This document shows positions 13,520 through 35,028 of a stretch of 38,564 nucleotides of DNA, piece by piece (position 1 is the first letter of the stretch; each line of letters opens with the position of its first letter). Source of the DNA: a virus. Location of the stretch: the UHGV virus genome UHGV-1336581. The stretch is one strand, 5' to 3'. The position numbers were made by a program, and so were the translations under genes. Under the pieces are notes generated by a model. The model was not told where the DNA came from, ran no database searches, and saw only the letters and a list, made by a program, of their open reading frames with translations.

Positions 13520-15856
13520 TTAATCAAAAAGGTCATCCTCCCTCAATCCAAGCCACTTTTCGAGATGCATAAGCAGTATTTTCAGGGCTTCTTCATACTC
13601 TGGGAATTCGTTTAGGTTAATCGAGTCAATTCTAGCTTTGGCAACATCTATGCCAATAAAATCGGCAATTGTTTCTTTGTTGAAACTGTTGTGAGGGGTG
13701 GATACCCTGTCACCATATGTGTAGCTGGTACCTCGGTGCATCAAGCGAGAGATCACGGCTGCGAAACCTTGGTTGGTTTGAATTACTTTCATCACCCACT
13801 CACGCGGTTCATCTATTGAATTCGTATAATCTTTCCAGCGATAAAGCTGATATATGAGATTAGGCTCGGTGAGCAGTGTGTTACCGTCTGCTGCGCGGCC
13901 CCTAATCAATCGCAACCATTCAGCCTTCATTTCCGTAATGGTGTTTAGATCTAACGCTGGCTCGAAGACACCGCTATCCCTATTTTCTCGATCGTCTGGA
14001 TCGCTCAGGTGAATAAGGAGCGAGGAGACAGATAACGCTTTAGTTTTACGGAGAGCGTCGAGAGCCAAATCATTTCGAACATCCTCAGGAAGCCGCTTCA
14101 GGAATTTATTTGTCGCTCGCCATGCTGCCACATATGACGGGTCAAAAGCACCATTTTTCGAGCTTGCAAGTTTTTCAGCAAGTATGAACATCCCCGGTAG
14201 CAAAATAGATGCGTTCTCAGTTGGTAATCGATCGACGGATTCGTCGAGCCTGGCTACGAGCGAGTTCAGTAGGCCATCAGCTTCGACGGTAGTGATTTCC
14301 TCATAGAGTTCTCTCTCTGTTGCTGTTGCATCGAGAAAATCAACAAAGCGACGCTCAGACATTTCTCCGATTGTCGTCTGAAGTTCGAAGTAACGAGGAA
14401 AGTAACGTGATGTGCATACTCGTTTCTCCGCCAGCCACTGGAGATGGAAGCCGTCTGCATAATGTGTTCCTCCATATGCCCATTCGAGAGGAGGAAATAA
14501 GTCTTTGAGCGTGTCACGAACGATATCGCGGCGTTTCTCCGGCACGATCTCAAGAAGCTTCTTAGCTGCTTCTTGGTCTAACTTCTGCCGGTTATTAAAT
14601 GAGTAATGTCTTTCTTGGAGAACCAATTCCCGCTCACGGAACAGTGTAGCGTGGAGATCTGGCTCAAAGACCCGGAGTGTCTCAAGAAGTAAGAAATCAA
14701 CAATGTTTACCTCGAATACATTGCCAATAACATGTAGTGGCATATTTATAGCAATAGACGAGATGAGGCGACGTGCATCGCGCATGTTTTTAAGCCAAGG
14801 CTGGATGCAACCAATGTAAGCGTTACCCCAGCGTGTCTGAGAGAACCCGTTTGCCTCGATTGCGTAAGGGTCTGCAATTTTAGCGAGTTCCTCCTCAAAC
14901 ATACGATGCACGAGCGATGCCGGGACTGCAGGAAGATCAAAACTAGCTTGCACGATTTTCTCAAGGAAGGCTCGACCATCACCGTCAGCAACTGGATCGA
15001 GTGCCCTCTCTACGATACTGGTCTGGAACAGTAGCACAAAAACAATGTTTGGCAGATTAGCATTCGCTTTTACTTGACGAAGTAGCATCCTGATCTGCTC
15101 TGGCTCGAGTCGGTCAATGTCGTCGACGAAGACGACCAGCGGACGCTCAAGTTCTCGAAGACGAGCCTCCAGCGATCTGCGTACCTTGTCGAGTGGCTCG
15201 CCACTATGGTCACGCCCGAGATATGTGAGTATGCGTCCAACAAGAGGAATTCCGACTGAGAGTAGTGAAAGAACAGCCGCAACCCCTGCGGCTGTGGGAA
15301 GGTCAAAGCCAATAGCTGACGCGATCGCTACAACGGAAGCATTAGTTAGCACTGTAGAGACTAGGAAGCTTGAACTACCGACCTCTTTAAGAGGTTTGCC
15401 GACCCCTATGAGGATTGCTCCGTAGCGTCGTAGTGCTTCGGCACGGTCAAGCTCAGCCTTCGAATGTTCACCTCTTAGGGAATTTGCTATCTGACCAAAT
15501 AGCGCGCCAGTGATGGCATCACCGTCTCCCCATTGCCATGGATTGAAATCGAGCCAGTTCGCCCCGTTGTTCTTGGCATCGAGCTGTTCGGTAATGAGAT
15601 TTTTTAGTGATGATTTGCCAAAGCCCCATCCTCCTCGGATAGCAAACACTCGGCCTTCGCGCAAACTAAGCTCTGAAAGCACATCAGCTATGCGAGCTGC
15701 AAATTCGGTCCTTCTAAGGCGATCTTCGGATGCTCGCCGAATTGGGGCCTCCGCCCCGATCCCCTCGTCCGGTCGCTCGTTCTTTATCACGTCAGCATTA
15801 GGCTTCGCGCGACGATGAGCGCGCCATGCCGTCAAGCGGAACAATAGCTTATTCAT
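13520..15856 (-). CDS. KAP-family P-loop NTPase with membrane insertion (Tmn-like candidate defence protein)
   Basis: Walker A GGWGFGKSS about 80 aa from the N-terminus, followed by hydrophobic helices inserted in the NTPase domain (VLTNASVVAIASAIGF...VLSLLSVGIPLVGRIL), a KAP hallmark; 778 aa. Confidence 0.7.
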   Translation of the reverse strand: MNKLLFRLTAWRAHRRAKPNADVIKNERPDEGIGAEAPIRRASEDRLRRTEFAARIADVLSELSLREGRVFAIRGGWGFGKSSLKNLITEQLDAKNNGANWLDFNPWQWGDGDAITGALFGQIANSLRGEHSKAELDRAEALRRYGAILIGVGKPLKEVGSSSFLVSTVLTNASVVAIASAIGFDLPTAAGVAAVLSLLSVGIPLVGRILTYLGRDHSGEPLDKVRRSLEARLRELERPLVVFVDDIDRLEPEQIRMLLRQVKANANLPNIVFVLLFQTSIVERALDPVADGDGRAFLEKIVQASFDLPAVPASLVHRMFEEELAKIADPYAIEANGFSQTRWGNAYIGCIQPWLKNMRDARRLISSIAINMPLHVIGNVFEVNIVDFLLLETLRVFEPDLHATLFRERELVLQERHYSFNNRQKLDQEAAKKLLEIVPEKRRDIVRDTLKDLFPPLEWAYGGTHYADGFHLQWLAEKRVCTSRYFPRYFELQTTIGEMSERRFVDFLDATATERELYEEITTVEADGLLNSLVARLDESVDRLPTENASILLPGMFILAEKLASSKNGAFDPSYVAAWRATNKFLKRLPEDVRNDLALDALRKTKALSVSSLLIHLSDPDDRENRDSGVFEPALDLNTITEMKAEWLRLIRGRAADGNTLLTEPNLIYQLYRWKDYTNSIDEPREWVMKVIQTNQGFAAVISRLMHRGTSYTYGDRVSTPHNSFNKETIADFIGIDVAKARIDSINLNEFPEYEEALKILLMHLEKWLGLREDDLFD

Positions 15857-19273: not shown

Positions 19274-20488
19274 GTGAAACTCAATGCCCGTCAAATAGAC
19301 ACTGCCAAGCCAAAAGAGAAGGCTTACAAGCTGGCTGATGGTGGTGGTCTGTATCTCCTGGTAAAACCTAGTGGAGGAAAATACTGGCGCTTTAAATATC
19401 GTGTAGCTGGTAAAGAGAAGCTGTTAGCACTAGGTGTGTATCCTGAAGTTACCTTGGCTGATGCTCGTGCAAAACGTGAAGAAGCTAAAAGGGGTATCGC
19501 TGGGGGTATCGATCCGATGGAAGCGAAACGAGAGGAAAAGATTGCCCGGGAAACGCAGTTAAACAATACCTTCAAAGATATTGCCCTTGAGTGGCACAGC
19601 AGCAAATTAAAAAAATGGTCTGCTGGTTATGCTTCAGATATCCTCGAAGCCTTCAACAAAGATGTGTTCCCTTACATTGGCAAAAAACCAATTGCCGAAA
19701 TCAAACCACTTGAACTTCTGAATGTGCTGCGACGCATCGAGGGGCGCGGTGCTACAGAAAAAGCCAAAAAAGTGAGGCAGCGGTGCGGGGAAGTTTTCCG
19801 CTATGCAATAGTCACTGGTCGCGCAGAGTATAACCCTGCCCCAGATCTTACTAGCGCGATGCAAGGCCATGAATCTAATCATTATCCTTTCCTCACAGCC
19901 AAAGAATTGCCTGATTTTTTCAAGGCATTGTCCAGTTACTCAGGAAGTGCATTGGTTGTTATGGCGGCTCGTCTACTGATTATCACTGGTTTGCGAACTG
20001 GCGAACTGCGCGGTGCATTATGGGATGAAATCGATCTCAACAAGGCTATCTGGGAGATACCTGCTTCACGGATGAAAATGCGTCGCCCTCATGTGGTGCC
20101 TTTGTCTAAGCAGGCTCTTTCTCTTATTGGGCAGATTAAAGAATTAACTGGTAATTATCCGCTTATGTTTCCCGGCCGTAATGATCCAAGGAAAACAATG
20201 AGCGAGGCTAGCATAAACCAAGTATTTAAACGCATCGGCTATAACGGAAAGGTTACTGGTCATGGATTCCGGCACACCATGAGCACGATTTTACATGAGC
20301 AGGGCTATAACACCGCGTGGATAGAAACGCAGCTTGCACACGTTGATAAGAACTCAATTCGTGGCACGTACAATCATGCGCAATATCTGGACGGGCGGCG
20401 CGAGATGCTCCAGTGGTACGCCGACTATATGGATTCGCTCGAACATGGCGGTAACGTGGTGCATGGCAAGTTCGGAAAATGTGGATGA
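19274..20488 (+). CDS. int: Tyrosine integrase, P4-type (N-terminal arm-binding domain)
   Basis: LNARQIDTAKPKEKAYKLADGGGLYLLVKPSGGKYWRFKYRVAGKEKLLALGVYPEVTLADARAKREEAK is the P4-integrase N-terminal signature; C-terminal HxxR...Y catalytic region (GHGFRHTMSTIL...HV...RGTYNH); GTG start, adjacent to the tRNA fragment. Confidence 0.9.
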   Translation: MKLNARQIDTAKPKEKAYKLADGGGLYLLVKPSGGKYWRFKYRVAGKEKLLALGVYPEVTLADARAKREEAKRGIAGGIDPMEAKREEKIARETQLNNTFKDIALEWHSSKLKKWSAGYASDILEAFNKDVFPYIGKKPIAEIKPLELLNVLRRIEGRGATEKAKKVRQRCGEVFRYAIVTGRAEYNPAPDLTSAMQGHESNHYPFLTAKELPDFFKALSSYSGSALVVMAARLLIITGLRTGELRGALWDEIDLNKAIWEIPASRMKMRRPHVVPLSKQALSLIGQIKELTGNYPLMFPGRNDPRKTMSEASINQVFKRIGYNGKVTGHGFRHTMSTILHEQGYNTAWIETQLAHVDKNSIRGTYNHAQYLDGRREMLQWYADYMDSLEHGGNVVHGKFGKCG

Positions 20489-21428: not shown

Positions 21429-21572
21429 TACCCTGAGGGTGATTTACTGTTACCCTGAGGGTATTTTTTTATCTTCCCCGTCAATTTTACCATCACCCTT
21501 AGGGTAGATTTCCTCCCGATTACCATCACCCTTAGGGTTAATTTCCTTCCGGTAACCATTAGGCCTGAGGGT
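21429..21572. promoter_or_regulatory. Five copies of interrupted palindrome (A)CCCT(G/T)AGGG(T) upstream of alpA; candidate operator array
   Basis: TACCCTGAGGGT at about 21429 and 21451, CACCCTTAGGGT at about 21494 and 21527, GCCTGAGGGT at about 21562. Confidence 0.45.
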
Positions 21573-21916: not shown

Positions 21917-22717
21917 ATGAAATTTCCAAAAACGCCCGTACAGGGGCGGGGCTTCGTTCGGCCTGAAAACCAGAATCTGCAAAATTTCGGCGAAATTATC
22001 CCGATTATTTCCGGCGTTATTGGCGGGAGTGAAACCACTATTGTTAGCGCCAGAGCGTTACATAAGGCGTTAGGTGTAGGGCGCGTTTTCCGTTCGTGGA
22101 TCAAGGGGCGCATTGAAGAATACGGGTTCACGGAAGGCGTGGATTATGAGGTTGTTGAATATTTGAGCCGACCCGATCCGGTGAGCGCAAAATCTCGCCA
22201 GCAAACCGCTCTTGAGTACATCATCACAGTGAACATGGCGAAAGAACTGGCGATGGTCGAACGTACCGAACAGGGCCGCGCCGTTCGCCAGTACTTTATC
22301 AAATGCGAGGAGGAGCTACACAAGGTTGCGCCTGTTCGTTCCGCAGCGTTACGCCGGGAACTGAAAGCCCGTATCACAGTTGCCAGCTACTTTAAGCCAA
22401 TGTGTGCCGCGCTGGAGGCGTACCGGGCTGAACTGGGTAAAAACACACTCCAGCACCACTACACCACGGAAGCGAGCATGCTGGCGCGTATCGTGCTGGG
22501 TGGCATGACTGCAAAACAGTGGGCACTGGCGAACGGCATTACAGGCGAACCACGCGACCACATGAGCACGTTGCAGCTTGAGCACCTTTCTTACCTTGAG
22601 CAGAGCAATATCACGCTGATTGAGTTAGGCCAGGACTACCACCAGCGGAAGGCTGAATTAATTCGTCTTTCGCAGCGTTGGTTAGCCCGTCGCATGGAGG
22701 AAAACAGCCATGTGTAA
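21917..22717 (+). CDS. Phage antirepressor-like DNA-binding protein (Ant/Rha/KilA-N-type N-terminal domain)
   Basis: N-terminal TIVSARALHKALGVGRVFRSWIKGRIEEYGFTEGVDYEV resembles antirepressor-type DNA-binding domains; domain assignment is tentative. Confidence 0.45.
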   Translation: MKFPKTPVQGRGFVRPENQNLQNFGEIIPIISGVIGGSETTIVSARALHKALGVGRVFRSWIKGRIEEYGFTEGVDYEVVEYLSRPDPVSAKSRQQTALEYIITVNMAKELAMVERTEQGRAVRQYFIKCEEELHKVAPVRSAALRRELKARITVASYFKPMCAALEAYRAELGKNTLQHHYTTEASMLARIVLGGMTAKQWALANGITGEPRDHMSTLQLEHLSYLEQSNITLIELGQDYHQRKAELIRLSQRWLARRMEENSHV

Positions 22718-25165: not shown

Positions 25166-25456
25166 ATGAAAAAGAAAAATTCTGGCTTTACTGCCAGCGG
25201 TCTCTCTCGGCCTGAAATCAGACACGGAGATATTTACCGCGACACCAGACGTGGGGGACGAGTGGTTATTCGTCACGTTACGCCAGGCAATATCACCTAC
25301 CGCCGTGAGGCTTACGAATATGACTGCGTAATGCCGCGCCGTCAGTTTGAGCGTGATTTTATTCTGGTTGAAAACAAACAACAGGCGGTGGCGAGACGTG
25401 CAGCCACGAATATTAAAAAAATCCGGGCAATGTTGGTTGCGGGAGGTAAGAAGTGA
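25166..25456 (+). CDS. Hypothetical small basic protein
   Basis: 96 codons; stop overlaps the start of the helicase-like gene. Confidence 0.45.
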   Translation: MKKKNSGFTASGLSRPEIRHGDIYRDTRRGGRVVIRHVTPGNITYRREAYEYDCVMPRRQFERDFILVENKQQAVARRAATNIKKIRAMLVAGGKK

Positions 25457-26865
25457 AAAACGCACCGAATTTAAAATATCAGCCGAAGGATAAATTCACC
25501 GAGGTAATCATTTTTGCCGGGACGGATGCTTACGCCCATGCTCAACACTGGATTGAAAGCGAAGGACGAAAACACGGCGATAACGTACCACCTGTTTACC
25601 TGGGGCCAAAGCAACTGGCAGACCTGGCGAATATCCGCATTGTCGACGATGAACGCCGCTTTGCGCGTGTCTATCTCGCGGGGGAGATCGAACCAATCCA
25701 GATCAATGCTATCGCTGAAAAGCTGGCGCTGGCTGGCGTACAGGAGGCGAAATTATACAAAGGTATCACCGACGGGGAGCCGGAGAACTGGCACGACTAC
25801 CTGCAACGGATCCGCGAACAGGCTGAGCGCGGGGAAATACTTACTGACGAGCAATACAGCCAGCGAAAAACCACGCTACCAATGAGCATTGGATCGGAAG
25901 GATATGATTCACAGCTTAGCTATGTAGTTAAGGGCGTGATTCCGGCTAATTCGCTATGTAGCACATACGGTGCGAGCGGTTCTTATAAGTCGTTCCTTGC
26001 GTGTTCGTGGGCGTGTCATGTTGCTACCGGTATCCCGTGGGGAGGTCGCAGGGTTGTACATGGTGCGGTGATGTATGTCGTTGGTGAGGGCGGGATCGGT
26101 GTTCCTCGTCGTATCAAGGCATGGGAACTGGTGAACAGTGAGCAGGTGAAAAATCTATACCTGGTAAATCGTCCAATTTTTCCGGCCGCACCGGGTGATG
26201 TTGATGAAATGGTTATTGCTGCCCGACAGGTTGAGCAGGAAACGGGTAAACCTGTACGCATGATTATTCTGGATACTCTGGCGCGTTGCTTTGGTGGCAG
26301 CGATGAAAATGATGCGCGGGATATGGGGGCATTTGTCCATGGATGTGACGAACTGAAACGACGTACAGGCGCTACAGTGCTGGTAATTCACCATTCCGGC
26401 AAGGATGAAACAAAGGGTGCGCGCGGTTCCAGTGCGTTTCGTGCAGCACTGGATGCAGAATACCGGATACGCCGTGAAGGTGCAGGCAGTGAAGCCCTGG
26501 TTATCGCATGTACCAAGATGAAGGATGCGGAGGAACTGAAAGAAATGGCTTGCGATTTGCGCGAGGTTGAGCTTTTCAAGGATGAGGGCGGGGAGTTAAT
26601 CACGTCGCTGGTGCTGGAGGATAAGCCCCGTCCGCCGGTTGAACTGGAGCGCATCGAGGAAGCTGGGAACAAGACGGAGAATCACGCCGCACTATGGGGT
26701 TGTATTCGTTCACGCACGCAACGCGGAGATAAATGTACTATTCCGTTGTTGCGCGATGACATGAAAAAGCTGGGGTATGAGATGAAAAACTTCCGGCGCT
26801 GGCTGTACAAGCTGGAAGGTGACGGCGTAATCGCTATTGACGGTGATGATGTGCGCCCACTGTAA
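25453..26865 (+). CDS. RecA-fold AAA ATPase, replicative helicase-like (RepA/DnaB-type)
   Basis: Walker A GASGSYKS, Walker B-like MIILDTLARCFGG, and VIHHSGKDETKGARGSSA typical of RepA/AAA_25-type helicase-ATPases of integrative elements. Confidence 0.7.
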   Translation: MKNAPNLKYQPKDKFTEVIIFAGTDAYAHAQHWIESEGRKHGDNVPPVYLGPKQLADLANIRIVDDERRFARVYLAGEIEPIQINAIAEKLALAGVQEAKLYKGITDGEPENWHDYLQRIREQAERGEILTDEQYSQRKTTLPMSIGSEGYDSQLSYVVKGVIPANSLCSTYGASGSYKSFLACSWACHVATGIPWGGRRVVHGAVMYVVGEGGIGVPRRIKAWELVNSEQVKNLYLVNRPIFPAAPGDVDEMVIAARQVEQETGKPVRMIILDTLARCFGGSDENDARDMGAFVHGCDELKRRTGATVLVIHHSGKDETKGARGSSAFRAALDAEYRIRREGAGSEALVIACTKMKDAEELKEMACDLREVELFKDEGGELITSLVLEDKPRPPVELERIEEAGNKTENHAALWGCIRSRTQRGDKCTIPLLRDDMKKLGYEMKNFRRWLYKLEGDGVIAIDGDDVRPL

Positions 26866-27266
26866 AAAGTGAAGCGTAAAAGTGAGGGGGGAAGGGAATA
26901 TTTAAAAATCATCCCTGTTTTCCTCACTTTCTCACCTGTATATAGATCAAAAAATGAGGAATTAAAAAAACATTGCAAAACAACATATTACAACAATAAA
27001 GAAAACGACTGAGGAGCAGAACAAGAATAACAAAAAGTGAGGAACAAAAGTGAGGAATGGTGAGTTAATAGAAATGAGGTAATAAAAATAACAGGTAGGT
27101 TAAAAAACATACCATGCAAGATATTAACTAAAACTTAACTATTTACCTCACTTTTGCGTATATATAAGGATTAAAAAGTGAGTGCTTAAAAATATATTTA
27201 AAATCATATTGTTATTAACTTCATAAATTCTCACTGCGCAGCAGGTGAGGAATTAAAAAATCAGGA
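26866..27266. repeat. AT-rich iteron region (many copies of AGTGAGG / TGAGGAA in both orientations); candidate replication origin
   Basis: Repeated AAAGTGAGG(G/A/T), GGTGAGGAATT, AATGAGGAATT, and inverted CCTCACTTT within about 400 bp directly downstream of the helicase-like gene. Confidence 0.4.
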
Positions 27267-27917
27267 ATGTTAAAAATGAAAACAGAACGTTACATACCTC
27301 AGGGTATGACTTACATAGAGCGTGAAGAGCTGAAAAGTTTTGCGACATCATGTGGACTATGCGGCGATATTCACCGCTTTACCAGAACTCTGATCATGAT
27401 TGCGCACTGGATGCGACAGGGACAGAGCGTAAGTTTTACAGAATATGCCGGGCGGTGGTTGTGGCCACGAATAATACGCCGATGATTTTTACCGAACACG
27501 CCGGAAGCGTTGCCCGTCGCCGTGTTATTTTCCAGTTTAACTGTCGCGTCAGTGAGGAAGATAAGGACCCCGGAAAAAGAGCGGGCGCTGCTGCTGAGGA
27601 AACGGAACAGCAAAGAGGCACTGGAGGTAAAGCTGTACGCCTTCTGTGACCACCTGAAGCGGCTAGCTGATTGCGTGGGAATGCTGGTGGATTATGCCGG
27701 TAAGGTTGCTGCGCCAAATACTCAGATGGATGCTTTATTCTGCGGCATGGTCGGCGAACTGACTAACCTACGCGTCATGGCGCAGCGGGCAGAAGTAGAG
27801 GCAGAATTGCTTGACGTTATCCGCAACGATCCGGATTTTAACGAACAGGCAAAAAACCGCAGAGCGGGTGGAATCTGGACACGCTTAAATCCTTTACTCG
27901 TGGTGTGTCTGCCGTAA
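27267..27917 (+). pseudogene. Decayed P4-alpha/D5-type primase-helicase C-terminal remnant (fragments in three frames)
   Basis: Three overlapping partial ORFs in different frames; one carries VVVATNNTPMIFTEHAGSVARRRVIFQFN, resembling the conserved C-terminal motif of D5/P4-alpha helicases. Tentative. Confidence 0.35.
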
Positions 27918-29866: not shown

Positions 29867-30180
29867 CTAGGACAACAGATCACGTACCCGGTTTGCCGTC
29901 CAGTCCGGGATATGCTCAATGACGTAACGCAACCATTTTTCTGGCTCCTCCTTGTTCAGACGGCACGTGCCGATCAGCAAGTACAGCACCGCAGTATGTT
30001 CGCCACCGCTGTTGGAACCTGCGAACAACCAGTTTTTCCGGCCCACTGCCACACCACGTTAGGCGTTTTCGGCGATGTTTTTGTCGATTTCCACCCAGCC
30101 ATTATTGCAGTATACGTTCAGCGCATCTATATGAATGCATCCCGTTTCGTAGTTTTGACGTTGATGGTAGATGAAAGTAC
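29867..30180 (-). mobile_element. IS66-family transposase 3' remnant (frameshifted C-terminal ~100 codons only)
   Basis: Minus-strand translation gives ...ALNVYCNNGWVEIDKNIAENA and, after a frameshift, VGRKNWLFAGSNSGGEHTAVLYLLIGTCRLNKEEPEKWLRYV, matching the conserved IS66 TnpC C-terminus; no N-terminal transposase sequence. Confidence 0.6.
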
Positions 30181-30749
30181 CGGGCATGAAACAATCAGTA
30201 AAAACGATGGGGCAAAGCATGACTAAGCTGACCATTAACAGAAAACCGAAAGGCATTTACGGCACGCCGCAGAAAACGACGCAGGCGGCACAGGAGCAGG
30301 ATAAAACCCCATCGGCGCATAAAGTGATGCTCGGTAACCAGAAAGCGCAGCAGAAGCTCACAGGGGCGACATCGTGGCGGCATATGACCAAACGCCAGCG
30401 CAAAAATCGCAGGCGCGTTAACCGCCTTACTGAGTTGTGGCCTGAATTATTCAACCGGGAAGCACCGAAGCCGCTTAAGGTGGGAATATTTGACGACCTG
30501 ATGCAGAATCTCGCCGTCAGGGGGCTGGCATTCGGGCCAGGGGCATTACGTGCGACGCTGGCATCTTATGCGCAGTGTCCGCGCTATTACCGCGCCTTAA
30601 TGGCTGGTGGGGTACGCTACGACCTGAAAGGCCAGCCGTGCGGCGAGGTGACACCACAGGAACAACAGGACGCAGAAACGCGGCTGGTGGCGCTGAATGA
30701 GAAGCGCAAACGTCAGCGCCGGGCAGCAAAGGAGAAAACAGGCGCATGA
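30171..30749 (+). CDS. FinO/ProQ-family RNA chaperone-like protein
   Basis: WPELFNREAPKPLKVGIFDDLMQ and ALRATLASYAQCPRYYRALMAGGVRYDLKGQPCGEV match the ProQ/FinO domain; real start probably an internal Met, since the 5' end overlaps the IS66 remnant. Confidence 0.65.
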   Translation: MKVPGMKQSVKTMGQSMTKLTINRKPKGIYGTPQKTTQAAQEQDKTPSAHKVMLGNQKAQQKLTGATSWRHMTKRQRKNRRRVNRLTELWPELFNREAPKPLKVGIFDDLMQNLAVRGLAFGPGALRATLASYAQCPRYYRALMAGGVRYDLKGQPCGEVTPQEQQDAETRLVALNEKRKRQRRAAKEKTGA

Positions 30750-31033
30750 TTCACGACAGCAAAGCGGAAGCACTGGAAGCGCGTGGTCTGTACCGGAGAG
30801 CGGCGGCTCGGTGGGCTGAGGTCATCATGCTGGCGAATGATGACAAGGCACGGGAACAGGCGGCAAAACGTCGCGCGGAATGTATCCACAAGGCAGCACG
30901 CCCACCAGCAAGGCAGGATAATTTCGGGGAGATGCGCAAAACCATCAGCCGGGCACATGTCGGGATGGGATTACATCAGCCCAATGGTGAGGCATTCAGG
31001 AAATACCAAAAAAAGAACAATTGTAGTCAGTAA
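30746..31033 (+). CDS. PerC-like transcriptional activator family protein
   Basis: DSKAEALEARGLYRRAAARWAEVIM resembles the PerC N-terminal signature; ATGA overlap with the upstream gene. Confidence 0.5.
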   Translation: MIHDSKAEALEARGLYRRAAARWAEVIMLANDDKAREQAAKRRAECIHKAARPPARQDNFGEMRKTISRAHVGMGLHQPNGEAFRKYQKKNNCSQ

Positions 31034-31167: not shown

Positions 31168-32310
31168 ATGAATAAAACTTTAATTGCAACATTAGTCGGT
31201 ATAGTAATGTTAACCGGATGTGGGCCAGAAGAGTTAACTCCAGAACAGAAACAGGAAGTAGCGGCTCTTAAAGCTGAACTGTCGCAAACGGAAGGTGAAA
31301 TATCAGCAGCTAAGGAAGTTGACCAGCAGTTTTCTGGTGGGTTGATAAAAAATCTGACAACAGCAAGACTGGAAATATTAGGAACTAATAAAGCGCTTTT
31401 GGAACAGCGTATTAATGCTATTGAATCAGGCGCCAAAATTGATGTTGTTGTATCTGGAGTAAAACCTGATCCTGAGCTTGCGGCTTCAATTAAAACTGAA
31501 ATTGACAGCTTAGATGCAAAAATCAACGAAGCCAAAGCTGATGCTCGTCAGTATAGTGGTGGTCTGATAAAGGTACTAAAATTATCTACTGTTGCCACTG
31601 AAGAGCAGACCATGGCAATGTTGCAGCAAAAGTACCTCACAGCCAAGTATGGCCTCGCTGAAGTTAAGCTGGCATCAGTACAAGATAATGACGCAAAAAA
31701 CAGTACTGAAACGGAAGTAACAGCCAAAAATTCCCAAGAGCAACTTCCTTTACTCCCGCCAGCGGATGGTCCGTTTGGCTTAGAAGCCGGTCTTACACAG
31801 AAAAACATCGAAGATATGATCGGTGCTAAGCTCAAGCCACTACCAGACAGTGTGAATCTGTATACTTCTGATAAATTACCGAAGCAAAACGCAGATTTTG
31901 AAATGTATGGTTTGTTGATCTCCCCGAAAGCTGGTTTATGTCAAATACGGGCTTTAGGAAAAAATATTGATACTGATAGCTATGGATTGGCTCTTAAATC
32001 CAAGTTTGAAGAATTGAGTAATTCTTTAAGTTCTCTGTATGGAAAGGCTGATACTACAGACTTTTTGCTGGCTGGTTCAATTTGGAAAGATCCTCAGGAC
32101 TGGATGAGGGGGCTAAACAAAAAAGAACGCTTCTTATCTGCCACATGGAAGGGAACAAAAGAAATACCATTAAAAAACAATATTGATACTATATATATTG
32201 AGGCCAGAGCGAACAATTCCACTCAGGGATATGTCTATTTGCAGTACTCATTTGCAAATGACGAAATTTGTCAGGCAGAAATTGAAGGGGCGAAAAAAAG
32301 TTCCCTTTAA
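31168..32310 (+). CDS. Lipoprotein of unknown function
   Basis: Signal peptide with lipobox (LVGIVMLTGCG); 380 aa with internally repeated segments (QQFSGGLIKNL / RQYSGGLIKVL). Confidence 0.6.
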   Translation: MNKTLIATLVGIVMLTGCGPEELTPEQKQEVAALKAELSQTEGEISAAKEVDQQFSGGLIKNLTTARLEILGTNKALLEQRINAIESGAKIDVVVSGVKPDPELAASIKTEIDSLDAKINEAKADARQYSGGLIKVLKLSTVATEEQTMAMLQQKYLTAKYGLAEVKLASVQDNDAKNSTETEVTAKNSQEQLPLLPPADGPFGLEAGLTQKNIEDMIGAKLKPLPDSVNLYTSDKLPKQNADFEMYGLLISPKAGLCQIRALGKNIDTDSYGLALKSKFEELSNSLSSLYGKADTTDFLLAGSIWKDPQDWMRGLNKKERFLSATWKGTKEIPLKNNIDTIYIEARANNSTQGYVYLQYSFANDEICQAEIEGAKKSSL

Positions 32311-32321
32311 ACAATCCGTGC

Positions 32322-32348
32322 AAAGCCCCTTAGTAAGGGGCTTTTATA
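32322..32348 (+). terminator. Rho-independent terminator
   Basis: AAGCCCCTT-AGTA-AGGGGCTT hairpin followed by TTATATAT, just after the lipoprotein stop. Confidence 0.5.
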
Positions 32349-32374
32349 TATTAATGTTCAACGGGGGGGATTAG

Positions 32375-32698
32375 ATGAAAGATAATCTAGAAAAACTAAT
32401 TGAAAATACTTTAAAAGATATTCTATTAGCTAATGCTGCTCTAACATTCATTTTTGCAATACCAATGGCTATTATCAGTAGGTATGGGATGGGCATCACA
32501 ATCTGGTTTATAACTGTGCTCATTGCACCTGCTCTGTGTGCAGTAGGTGCATGGCTTGTATCTCGAACATCCGGCCATGCTGAGGAGTTCTTTCATCGTC
32601 GGTGGGCTAAGCGAATTTATGTTTTTTATACTCTTGCGGCTGCCGAGTTTTTGCTTGTGTACTCAATCGCGCAAATAATGAAAAATCTGATGAAATAA
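32375..32698 (+). CDS. Small inner-membrane protein
   Basis: 107 aa with two or three hydrophobic helices; GGGGG-type RBS upstream. Confidence 0.5.
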   Translation: MKDNLEKLIENTLKDILLANAALTFIFAIPMAIISRYGMGITIWFITVLIAPALCAVGAWLVSRTSGHAEEFFHRRWAKRIYVFYTLAAAEFLLVYSIAQIMKNLMK

Positions 32699-32985
32699 TT
32701 AACAAGTTATTATCATGGAGCTTGTGGCTGTTAACCTGCAGTGAGGCGACAATCGTGTATTTATAAAAACTTCCCCTTTTCACTCCCCGCTGTTTCTTCT
32801 GCTATTGCCTTTATGTTTGCATGCACCAACATCTGCCATACCTTTGCAGAAAAATCAGAGCATTCAGTGCCGAAGGTTGGTTTATTGATGCTTTTCGTTT
32901 CATTTATTGCAATTGTCTCTGGTATCATTTCAATTTGTGCAATAATTGCAATAATTGCAATTATTGTCATTCAGAAGGGATCATC

Positions 32986-33153
32986 ATGAAAAATCACGGA
33001 GTAAAGCCAGTTTTACTTTCCCGGAGGCAGATCGAAGCCCTGCAACGCATCCAGGACGAAGAGCGTCAGAAATCTGTGCTTGGTGTGGCACCGTCGATTC
33101 ATGTTATCGCTCGGCAACTGATGGATAAGGCACTTAAAGAGGTGAGACTGTGA
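32986..33153 (+). CDS. Hypothetical small protein (55 aa)
   Basis: ATG preceded by GAAGGGA; stop overlaps the next gene's start (ATGA). The longer track ORF from 32821 runs through a tandem repeat and is probably not coding upstream. Confidence 0.4.
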   Translation: MKNHGVKPVLLSRRQIEALQRIQDEERQKSVLGVAPSIHVIARQLMDKALKEVRL

Positions 33154-33422
33154 AATTAAATATCAGAGTGGATAAACGCCAGCTATGGCAGAAAAAAGAG
33201 AACAGCGAGGCATTCAGGGCGTTGCTGGTGGAAAATCTTCAGCACCGGTTCAGTGGAGAGTTGCCTGATGCTCTAGGGAAGAAACTGGAATCCCTGACGG
33301 TGGAAATTGGCGATTATGGCTTTGTTGATGTTGAAAGCACGACTGCCAACACAGAAATCGTAAAACAGGTCGTCAATGATGTAATGAAAACCACGCTTAG
33401 CCAGCCATCCTGGCGCAACTGA
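33150..33422 (+). CDS. Hypothetical protein (90 aa)
   Basis: Translationally coupled to the preceding small gene; followed by a terminator hairpin. Confidence 0.5.
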   Translation: MKLNIRVDKRQLWQKKENSEAFRALLVENLQHRFSGELPDALGKKLESLTVEIGDYGFVDVESTTANTEIVKQVVNDVMKTTLSQPSWRN

Positions 33423-33427
33423 ATCAG

Positions 33428-33452
33428 TAAGGGGCGGTTATTGCCCCTTTCC
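33428..33452 (+). terminator. Rho-independent terminator
   Basis: AAGGGGC-GGTTATT-GCCCCTTT hairpin immediately after the stop codon. Confidence 0.5.
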
Positions 33453-33504
33453 TCCATACCCACAACGCATTCCCTTTCCGCATGAAATTATTTTTTTATC
33501 GTAT

Positions 33505-34443: not shown

Positions 34444-35028
34444 GTGATGAGTTTTTTTAATCTTTATGGGAAAGAACTATTTTCTTTTTTTATAGCGATT
34501 TTAACATGGATACTGAATAACAGATTTAAAAGCAAGGCAAAGTTATCCTATGGTTATCAGCATGGATTTACTTTTCTTCTCAATGAACCCTTACGGAATG
34601 CTAATGGTGAGGTAATATCTAATTCACAGTTGGTGTATACACGATCTATTATTCTTGTTAATGAAGGGCGAGAAAGTGCTACTAATATATCATTGGTTTT
34701 TAACTATAAGCCAATGCATATTAATTTTTGGCCTGTCCACCATTTTGAAGAAAATATTGAACAGGATGGTCGCTATATTATCAAGTTTGAAAGCCTTGCA
34801 CCTAGTGAGTCTATTCAATGTGAAATATTATCAATAAATAGAGAAGTTCCAAGTATTCTATCGATAAGATCTAAAGAGTGTGTGGCTGAGCCAGTGAATA
34901 TCGTGATGCAAAAATCGATTAGTAATATTGCCCTACGTTGCTATCAATTATTAATACTTCTTGGAACTGGCACATTAACATATTTAATTATCGTTATTCT
35001 GCAATGGTTAGTCACTAAAACGGGATAA
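34444..35028 (+). CDS. Hypothetical membrane protein (AT-rich cargo)
   Basis: 194 aa; hydrophobic helices at both ends (FFIAILTWIL; LLILLGTGTLTYLIIVILQWLV); visibly AT-rich. Confidence 0.5.
   Translation: MMSFFNLYGKELFSFFIAILTWILNNRFKSKAKLSYGYQHGFTFLLNEPLRNANGEVISNSQLVYTRSIILVNEGRESATNISLVFNYKPMHINFWPVHHFEENIEQDGRYIIKFESLAPSESIQCEILSINREVPSILSIRSKECVAEPVNIVMQKSISNIALRCYQLLILLGTGTLTYLIIVILQWLVTKTG

Follow-up and report, generated by a model that had tools for sequence, protein, structure and literature searches.

A 9-bp tandem repeat in a PICI-type satellite island is probably a duplicated half-site within a conserved two-site promoter region

The analysed stretch of DNA (38,564 nt, referred to as the window) harbours a segment that matches chromosomal islands at 97–99% identity; such islands were found in 132 of the 5,426 complete E. 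coli genomes searched. A megablast search with positions 32300–33500 found no match in phage genomes. The island has an integrase at one end and its own replication module, and it carries no full set of virion or lysis genes; none of the structural-gene families was found among the island ORFs scanned. Judged by this gene content, the island is a PICI-type phage satellite of Gram-negative layout. PerC-like genes, one of which is present here, are common in Gram-negative PICIs (PMC11773190, PMC6092414). The genes are arranged as follows:

19274–20488, integrase, first in the island gene order
21917–22717, AntA-like gene, second in the island gene order
25453–26865, RepA-like AAA_25 helicase, after the AntA-like gene
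between the RepA-like helicase and ProQ/FinO, SDH protease
30171–30749, ProQ/FinO
30746–31033, PerC
between perC and the promoter, 380-aa and 107-aa ORFs, cargo
32986–33153, plus strand, 55-aa gene, predicted ribbon-helix-helix (RHH) protein, first gene of the operon
33150–33422, plus strand, 90-aa gene, sharing 4 nt (33150–33153) with the 55-aa gene, a partner of the E. coli type only
after the 90-aa gene, 181-aa HTH protein with weak small-terminase similarity (PHROG terS, E = 6e-7)

A search of the 181-aa HTH protein against PDB chains gave no match at E ≤ 1. A stem-loop, AAGGGGCGGTTATTGCCCCTT, is located at 33426–33446, about 60–100 nt before the candidate start codons of this HTH/TerS-like gene, and could be the terminator of the 90-aa gene or a cos-like element. 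It has a GGGCGG in common with lambda cosN, and the cos site of cos-type PICIs is found about 100 bp upstream of rpp (PMC9026076). Short A+T-rich tandem repeats with periods of 11–16 are clustered at 27033–27277, just past the RepA-like helicase gene, and are a candidate for the replication origin of the island. The strongest tandem repeat of the window by TRF score (111) is a 33-bp unit present in 2.2 copies at 21487–21559, upstream of the AntA-like gene. Strains differ in the region downstream of the operon, which carries an AAA ATPase and DUF4435 in E. coli 55989 (L002 5357–7191) and DUF4747 with a partner in others (L001 8504–9996; window 34444–35028), and looks like a hotspot for cargo or defence genes. 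On the minus strand at 13520–15856, a 778-aa KAP-family P-loop NTPase is encoded between apparent phage tail genes, as judged by ORF size, and the integrase.

The following features are found around the start of the operon:

32741–32989, plus strand, 82-aa hydrophobic ORF reading AIIAIIAII, with a GTG start at 32741 and a 33-aa version from the ATG at 32888; spurious
32761–32970, minus strand, 69-aa ORF, a RefSeq hypothetical protein whose exact sequence is listed as WP_244462333.1; spurious
32821–33153, plus strand, 110-aa ORF reading NCNNCN, an N-terminal extension of the 55-aa gene
32897–32913, plus strand, distal 17-bp site GTTTCA-TTTAT-TGCAAT, 1 mismatch to the consensus in a pattern search
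32927–32943, plus strand, proximal 17-bp site ATTTCA-ATTTG-TGCAAT, 0 mismatches, 30 bp downstream of the distal site
32938–32966, no strand, tandem repeat TGCAATAAT TGCAATAAT TGCAATTAT TG, 3.2 units (2.2 units in most relatives)
32940–32966, no strand, 27-bp palindrome with 13-nt arms that are 100% complementary and 1 nt between them (repeat-pair search)
32941–32967, plus strand, candidate −10-like hexamers AATAAT (32941–32946 and 32950–32955) and TATTGT (32962–32967), aligned to TATAAT/CATAAT of the relatives
32945–32961, plus strand, extra perfect site ATTGCA-ATAAT-TGCAAT, 0 mismatches, formed by two adjacent repeat units
32975–32980, plus strand, Shine-Dalgarno AAGGGA, 5 nt before the 55-aa ATG, aligning with CAGGAGG of the relatives

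Tandem Repeats Finder detected the TGCAATAAT array at 32938–32966 with a period of 9, 3.2 copies, 95% matches and a score of 51. Arrays scoring at least 51 were found in 9 of 100 dinucleotide-preserving shuffles of the window, and arrays with a period of at least 6 and at least 3 copies in none of the 100. The ATG of the 55-aa gene (32986) is located 19 nt past the array end. A sequence-only reading of this DNA had reported a repeat of 3–4 units at 32741–32990; the repeat was indeed found, but the coordinates turned out to be the span of the 82-aa plus-strand ORF. The sequence ATTGCAAT is identical to its own reverse complement, so that each pair of adjacent 9-bp units rebuilds a full ATTGCA-N5-TGCAAT and the array is a single long palindrome. 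DNA folding of the single-stranded array predicts a hairpin with a 12–14-bp stem (z = −3.2), and we infer that the 27-bp palindrome may be a hairpin- or cruciform-prone substrate for slippage. In our own reading, the unit TGCAATAAT also resembles an extended −10 element (TGnTATAAT) at 8 of 9 positions.

An alignment of 21 loci revealed the same succession of elements upstream of every 55-aa homologue: a distal site (exemplified by CATTTCATAAATCGGCAT), a proximal site (CATTTCAnTTTnTGCAAT) about 30 bp downstream, a −10, ACTGTAT, CAGGAGG and the ATG. The sites share the consensus ATTKCA-N5-TGMAAT, a 17-bp pseudo-palindrome. The equivalent of the distal site is located at −79/−80 from the ATG in the E. 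coli relatives with two units and at the aligned position in other genera, and the proximal site of the relatives starts at −49/−50 and abuts the −10 hexamer; in the window it is displaced to −59. The −10 is TATAAT in most genera; in 15 of the 21 aligned loci TATAAT, CATAAT or TACAAT comes right after TGCAAT, and wherever the distance to the ATG was counted it is 32 nt. The −10 is thus found at a fixed distance from the start codon across relatives, as expected of a sigma-70 promoter. Weaker hexamers take the place of the canonical TATAAT in the window lineage. A scan that requires a −35 found no plus-strand sigma-70 promoter in the window, and no −35 is conserved in the promoters of the 55-aa type.

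At no more than one mismatch, the site pattern has three matches in the 38.5 kb, at 32897, 32927 and 32945, a count that is circular if taken alone since the pattern was derived from these same sequences. In about 100 kb of related loci the pattern is found almost exclusively at −49/−50 and −79/−80 from the start codon, and on sequence comparison this positional register is independent evidence for the sites. Both orientations occur (ATTGCA-N5-TGAAAT in L014 versus ATTTCA-N5-TGCAAT in most others), which fits a dimeric DNA-binding protein. The two conserved 17-bp sites, together with the extra site of the window, form repeated (pseudo)palindromic subsites overlapping the presumed core promoter. 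The earlier suggestion that the repeat lies in the leader of the 55-aa/90-aa gene pair is supported in that it is located immediately before the 55-aa gene, where the conserved features are of the promoter/operator type. In L010, L012, L015, L018 and L019, the sequence TTCGATCAAAACGATCAAAT, common to the non-E. coli loci, is located about 25–45 nt upstream of the distal site, with two GATC 10 bp apart. A LexA box between the −10 and the Shine-Dalgarno was considered and rejected as a general feature, since CTGT-N8-ACAG is exact only in L013, L015, L033 and L073 and 1 bp short elsewhere.

In the window lineage, the right half of the proximal site and its A/T-rich neighbour (TGCAAT+AAT) are multiplied in tandem. 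Probably, the repeat does not code for protein and is a half-site that has been duplicated inside a conserved promoter/operator. The earlier notion of repeat debris finds no support, since the half-site copied by the unit is conserved across genera. The two-unit allele lacks the perfect extra site, having TGTGCA-ATAAT-TGCAAT with 2 mismatches instead, and it retains the ancestral register of −50/−80. With the extra unit of the window the ancestral sites are pushed to −59/−89, a shift of 9 bp or about 0.86 helical turn, and a new perfect site is created at −41, where it would cover the presumed −10 region.

The same site pair, 30 bp apart, was found in the archetypal and experimentally studied PICI EcCICFT073, in the interval from perC to the capsid/packaging genes; the rest of that island contains no such pair. 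The proximal site there is ATTGCT-CAAAA-TGCAAT, the left half of which is a −35-like TTGC(A/T) located 16 bp from TATAAT, and the 68-aa product of the first gene has an N-terminal pattern like that of RHH proteins. A scan of IMG/VR using the two sites alone as a query, with neither gene nor −10, revealed at least 123 loci, 11 of those listed being chance matches in unrelated contigs. All 112 genuine loci among the matches listed have a small gene within 250 nt downstream; among these matches, 72 are of the CFT073 68-aa type and 40 of the 55-aa type, and PerC is encoded upstream in 76 of the genuine loci listed. The leaders of the CFT073 type (L027 15400–15445; the 72 listed IMG/VR loci, e.g. 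L085 and L091) contain a hairpin, AACTGGATG-AA-CATCCAGTT, with a T-run, which resembles an intrinsic terminator or an attenuator ahead of the first gene.

These comparisons suggest that, across Enterobacterales, the two-site module stands at the start of the post-replication operon of PICI-type satellites. A keyword search of the PICI literature found no description of this promoter, its sites or the control of the operon, and this conserved control region of the PICI late operon is apparently new to the literature. As a by-product, the analysis of the repeat thus provides a sharply defined and widely conserved two-site promoter before the late operon of Gram-negative PICI satellites, the motif of which is a concrete target for footprinting and reporter work.

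Comparison of strains demonstrated that the copy number is not identical everywhere; alleles of two and of three units exist, and variation is rare. A search with 100 nt spanning the array identified 112 E. coli carriers. Of these, about 106 have 91 nt, corresponding to two units; 2, among them strain QML220601, have the full 100 nt with three units; and in 4, 48 bp are deleted between two copies of ATTGCAATT. This deletion, found in L005 (E. coli N921, 2700–2920) and 3 other genomes, takes out the proximal site; the 55-aa gene of L005 has a premature stop and is not annotated in RefSeq. QML220601 (L020) has a homogenised three-unit form in which the first unit is altered too (TTTCAATAATTGCAAT...), and no complete genome in the collection searched is identical to the window. 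Among clonal O104:H4 isolates the array does not vary. With the minus-strand ORF as a proxy, a collection of 15 billion proteins holds 66-aa forms (two units) on more than 2,400 contigs and 69-aa forms (three units) on 2, 22 and 2 contigs (26) representing three sequence backgrounds, which implies recurrent expansion. More than three units were found in none of the 15 members of the minus-strand ORF cluster with sequence read, and the three-unit allele in none of the 14 window-type loci among the IMG/VR matches listed. Since copy number differs between strains, slippage has occurred, and in this respect the earlier idea of a slipped-strand mispairing tract was supported; the switch that it implied is at odds with about 106 of 112 carriers having two units and 2 having three, and with the uniformity of O104:H4. 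On the genomes compared, array length is a rare polymorphism, neither hypervariable nor a programmed switch.

The frames reading AIIAIIAII and NCNNCN had been assigned to different strands, but both are plus-strand frames, and a third ORF is located on the minus strand and reads MTIIAIIAIIA (MTIIAIIAIIAQ...). The suspicion that the ORFs are spurious was supported, as they are conserved in relatives in no frame and a natural 10-bp deletion frameshifts them. The search for related loci was built on an 11-sequence alignment; the E. coli relatives used for the frame check are 68–88% identical, and 13 loci came from the other genera Rouxiella, Serratia, Pantoea, Erwinia, Lonsdalea, Leclercia, Rahnella, Chimaeribacter and Symbiopectobacterium. 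L004 and L023 (E. coli, about 88% identical) lack both cargo genes; in them the perC terminator directly adjoins the conserved segment, and their hydrophobic frame has no start codon and runs beyond the 55-aa gene ATG. L003, L024 and L025 (about 68–84% identical) and the 13 loci from other genera have stops in all frames ahead of the 55-aa gene, none of which is open. The minus-strand ORF is missing from the relatives without upstream cargo. In L021 (strain K56-43-un), a 10-bp deletion at 32820–32829 frameshifts both long ORFs, and RefSeq annotates no gene there.

The conservation of frame, start and stop expected of a gene encoding a small hydrophobic membrane protein or a type I toxin was thus not found. 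Pfam and PHROG gave no match for the 82-aa, 69-aa, 55-aa or 90-aa products, Rfam at E ≤ 1 returned just sub-threshold eukaryotic families, and the exact 82-aa sequence is absent from the 15-billion-protein collection. The codon positions of the 33-aa ORF have just 4 substitutions (1 synonymous, 3 conservative), too few to be informative. RefSeq calls the minus-strand ORF a “hypothetical protein”; its cluster comprises 53 different sequences and is spread over thousands of contigs. Because it is frameshifted in one strain and missing from close relatives, this ORF is probably an annotation artefact, and the RefSeq “hypothetical protein” entries at the array probably should not exist.

Several other explanations of the repeat deserve consideration. 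There might be a real small hydrophobic protein of 33 aa or 82 aa, coupled to the 55-aa gene via an ATGA overlap, or the minus-strand 69-aa protein of RefSeq might be real. GAAGG is located 11 nt before the ATG at 32888, the stop of the hydrophobic ORF overlaps the 55-aa ATG (32986–32989), the 9-bp and 48-bp indels keep the frame, and the minus-strand ORF is annotated across many genomes. However, a 9-bp unit is in frame by necessity, the hydrophobicity is a consequence of ATT/GCA-rich DNA, the products match no family and the 55-aa gene has its own Shine-Dalgarno. Together with the missing start and the run past the ATG in L004 and L023, the stops in L003, L024, L025 and all other genera, and the deletion in L021 that ruins both long ORFs, this makes a coding role very improbable. 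The repeats could also be iterons of the island replication origin or belong to a cos/pac packaging site; origins and packaging sites are each found in satellite islands and each consist of repeats. Against this, a separate A+T-rich repeat cluster follows the helicase at 27033–27277, cos would be expected near 33430 and not 32940 (PMC9026076), and the strict −50/−80 register, the −10 and the Shine-Dalgarno are features of a promoter. We give the origin or packaging explanation almost no credence.

A contingency locus, where a hypermutable repeat toggles the operon through promoter spacing, would agree with the location of the tract within a conserved promoter region, 19 nt upstream of the ATG, with strain differences in copy number and with the ability of the array to form a hairpin. 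However, hypervariable copy number among close strains was not observed in the 112 E. coli carriers: just 2–3 units of 9 bp occur, with no wider range seen, about 95% of the carriers are in one state and the clonal O104:H4 genomes are identical. Such a locus is highly unlikely here. The third unit may, on the other hand, be a neutral or slightly harmful product of slippage without regulatory consequence, the ancestral sites alone being of importance, a possibility that we find doubtful. The rarity of the three-unit allele (2 of 112 complete genomes, none of the 14 listed window-type IMG/VR loci, 26 versus more than 2,400 contigs) suggests that it may be neutral or mildly deleterious, and no allele of four or more units was seen. 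Yet the addition of a perfect site over the presumed −10/start region combined with a 9-bp shift is hard to square with no effect, and the allele recurs on three backgrounds.

The 55-aa protein models as a ribbon-helix-helix fold. A PDB search with the 55-aa profile gave nothing meaningful and no sequence match to any solved RHH, and hhalign detected no homology between the CFT073 68-aa protein and the 55-aa family (probability 0.3%). The 55-aa and 90-aa genes had been regarded as a small coupled pair, but as a conserved unit the pair does not exist: the 55-aa gene alone is conserved and is followed in other lineages by unrelated genes of 108, 191 or 364 aa. A toxin-antitoxin reading was rejected, as this replacement of the partner makes it unlikely.

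RHH proteins commonly autoregulate via repeated subsites. The leading candidate for the protein binding the sites is the operon's own small predicted RHH protein, acting as an autoregulator, which we consider somewhat short of an even chance; this is favoured by the first gene being the only invariant neighbour, by the repressor-like position of the site and by the typical autoregulation of RHH proteins. Identical half-sites before two non-homologous first genes argue for a shared binder other than these proteins. A non-RHH factor could be the PerC-family regulator encoded just upstream, a different regulator of the island or the helper phage, or a protein of the host, and we regard this as possible but rather unlikely. 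On this view the promoter would depend on an activator; promoters of the 55-aa type have no conserved −35; perC is located immediately upstream in relatives of the window, in EcCICFT073 and in many other genera; and identical half-sites serve two first-gene families without detectable homology. For PerC itself, however, no upstream homologue was found even at E < 1 in 32 of 108 loci among the matches listed, each of which had at least 1.5 kb of upstream sequence and the PerC-less ones mostly 4–7 kb; two of these 32 have a PerC homologue about 3.7 kb downstream. Furthermore, 6 of 14 other-genus loci have no PerC within 3 kb. The absence from about 30% of the listed loci weakens PerC as the binder. 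The proximal site covers the spacer/−35 region (−29 to −13; −35 to −19 in the CFT073 type), which, going by the sequence, is the position of a repressor or MerR-like factor and not of a classical activator. AlpA, which acts as an activator at its own promoter (PMC6092414), is weakened as a candidate because the HTH-regulator gene at the AlpA position of EcCICFT073 has no site. RgdR, known from the PerC/LEE1 literature (PMC3378721), was rejected, being a different 99-aa island gene for which no DNA motif is given.

Under the preferred explanation, a duplicated half-site within a promoter/operator, the ancestral layout, as comparison shows, had two ATTKCA-N5-TGMAAT sites at a distance of 30 bp, with the −10 directly adjoining the proximal site and the Shine-Dalgarno and the ATG about 32 nt further on. 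The extra unit may have arisen from replication slippage or from hairpin misalignment in the palindromic array. It would add a high-quality putative binding site over the −10/start region, would move both ancestral sites 9 bp further from the start codon, and may thereby alter the strength of control by the cognate regulator over the operon, most likely towards tighter repression. A more far-reaching speculation, which we consider improbable, is that the ATTGCAAT array is an expandable met-box-like operator by which the RHH protein gates a packaging/interference operon, that slippage from two to three units tunes the silencing, and that the two-site promoter is the control point. If true, the two-site promoter of EcCICFT073 and its Enterobacterales relatives would be a so far undescribed control point of the operon. 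Overall, what is seen at the locus is an ordinary cis-regulatory length polymorphism accompanied by annotation artefacts, and the repeat itself, a rare promoter length variant, matters little.

RHH repressors with tandem operator subsites include MetJ with its met-boxes, Arc/Mnt, CopG and omega of pSM19035, and the met-box is the 8-bp AGACGTCT, present in arrays of 2–5. The window resembles these systems in having a predicted small RHH-fold protein encoded directly downstream of short (pseudo)palindromic subsites that recur in phase across the core promoter. With its 9-bp period, the 8-bp palindrome ATTGCAAT is reminiscent of the 8-bp met-box AGACGTCT, and the centres of the half-sites are separated by 11 bp, which is also the spacing in the Arc operator. 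In contrast to the RHH operators, the 55-aa protein of the window matches no solved RHH and no Pfam family, the operator of the window is a putative one, the same sites precede a non-homologous first gene in other islands, and the array of the window is polymorphic in copy number within one species. Phase-variable promoter repeats, as known from contingency loci, are similar in that the repeat is located inside the promoter and differs in length between strains, whereas the unit of the window is long (9 bp) and present in just 2–3 copies, with nearly all strains in one state.

A further close comparison is with EcCICFT073 and other Gram-negative PICIs (Fillol-Salom 2018, PMC6092414; 2019, PMC6739421), which also have the integrase first, followed by a replication module, perC and a packaging or HTH/TerS-like operon. 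The window differs from EcCICFT073 in having a RepA-like helicase and an AntA-like gene instead of the CFT073 primase layout, a first gene of 55 aa instead of 68 aa, an operon without capsid genes, and the 380-aa and 107-aa cargo between perC and the promoter. Common to both islands is an identical two-site promoter between perC and the operon.
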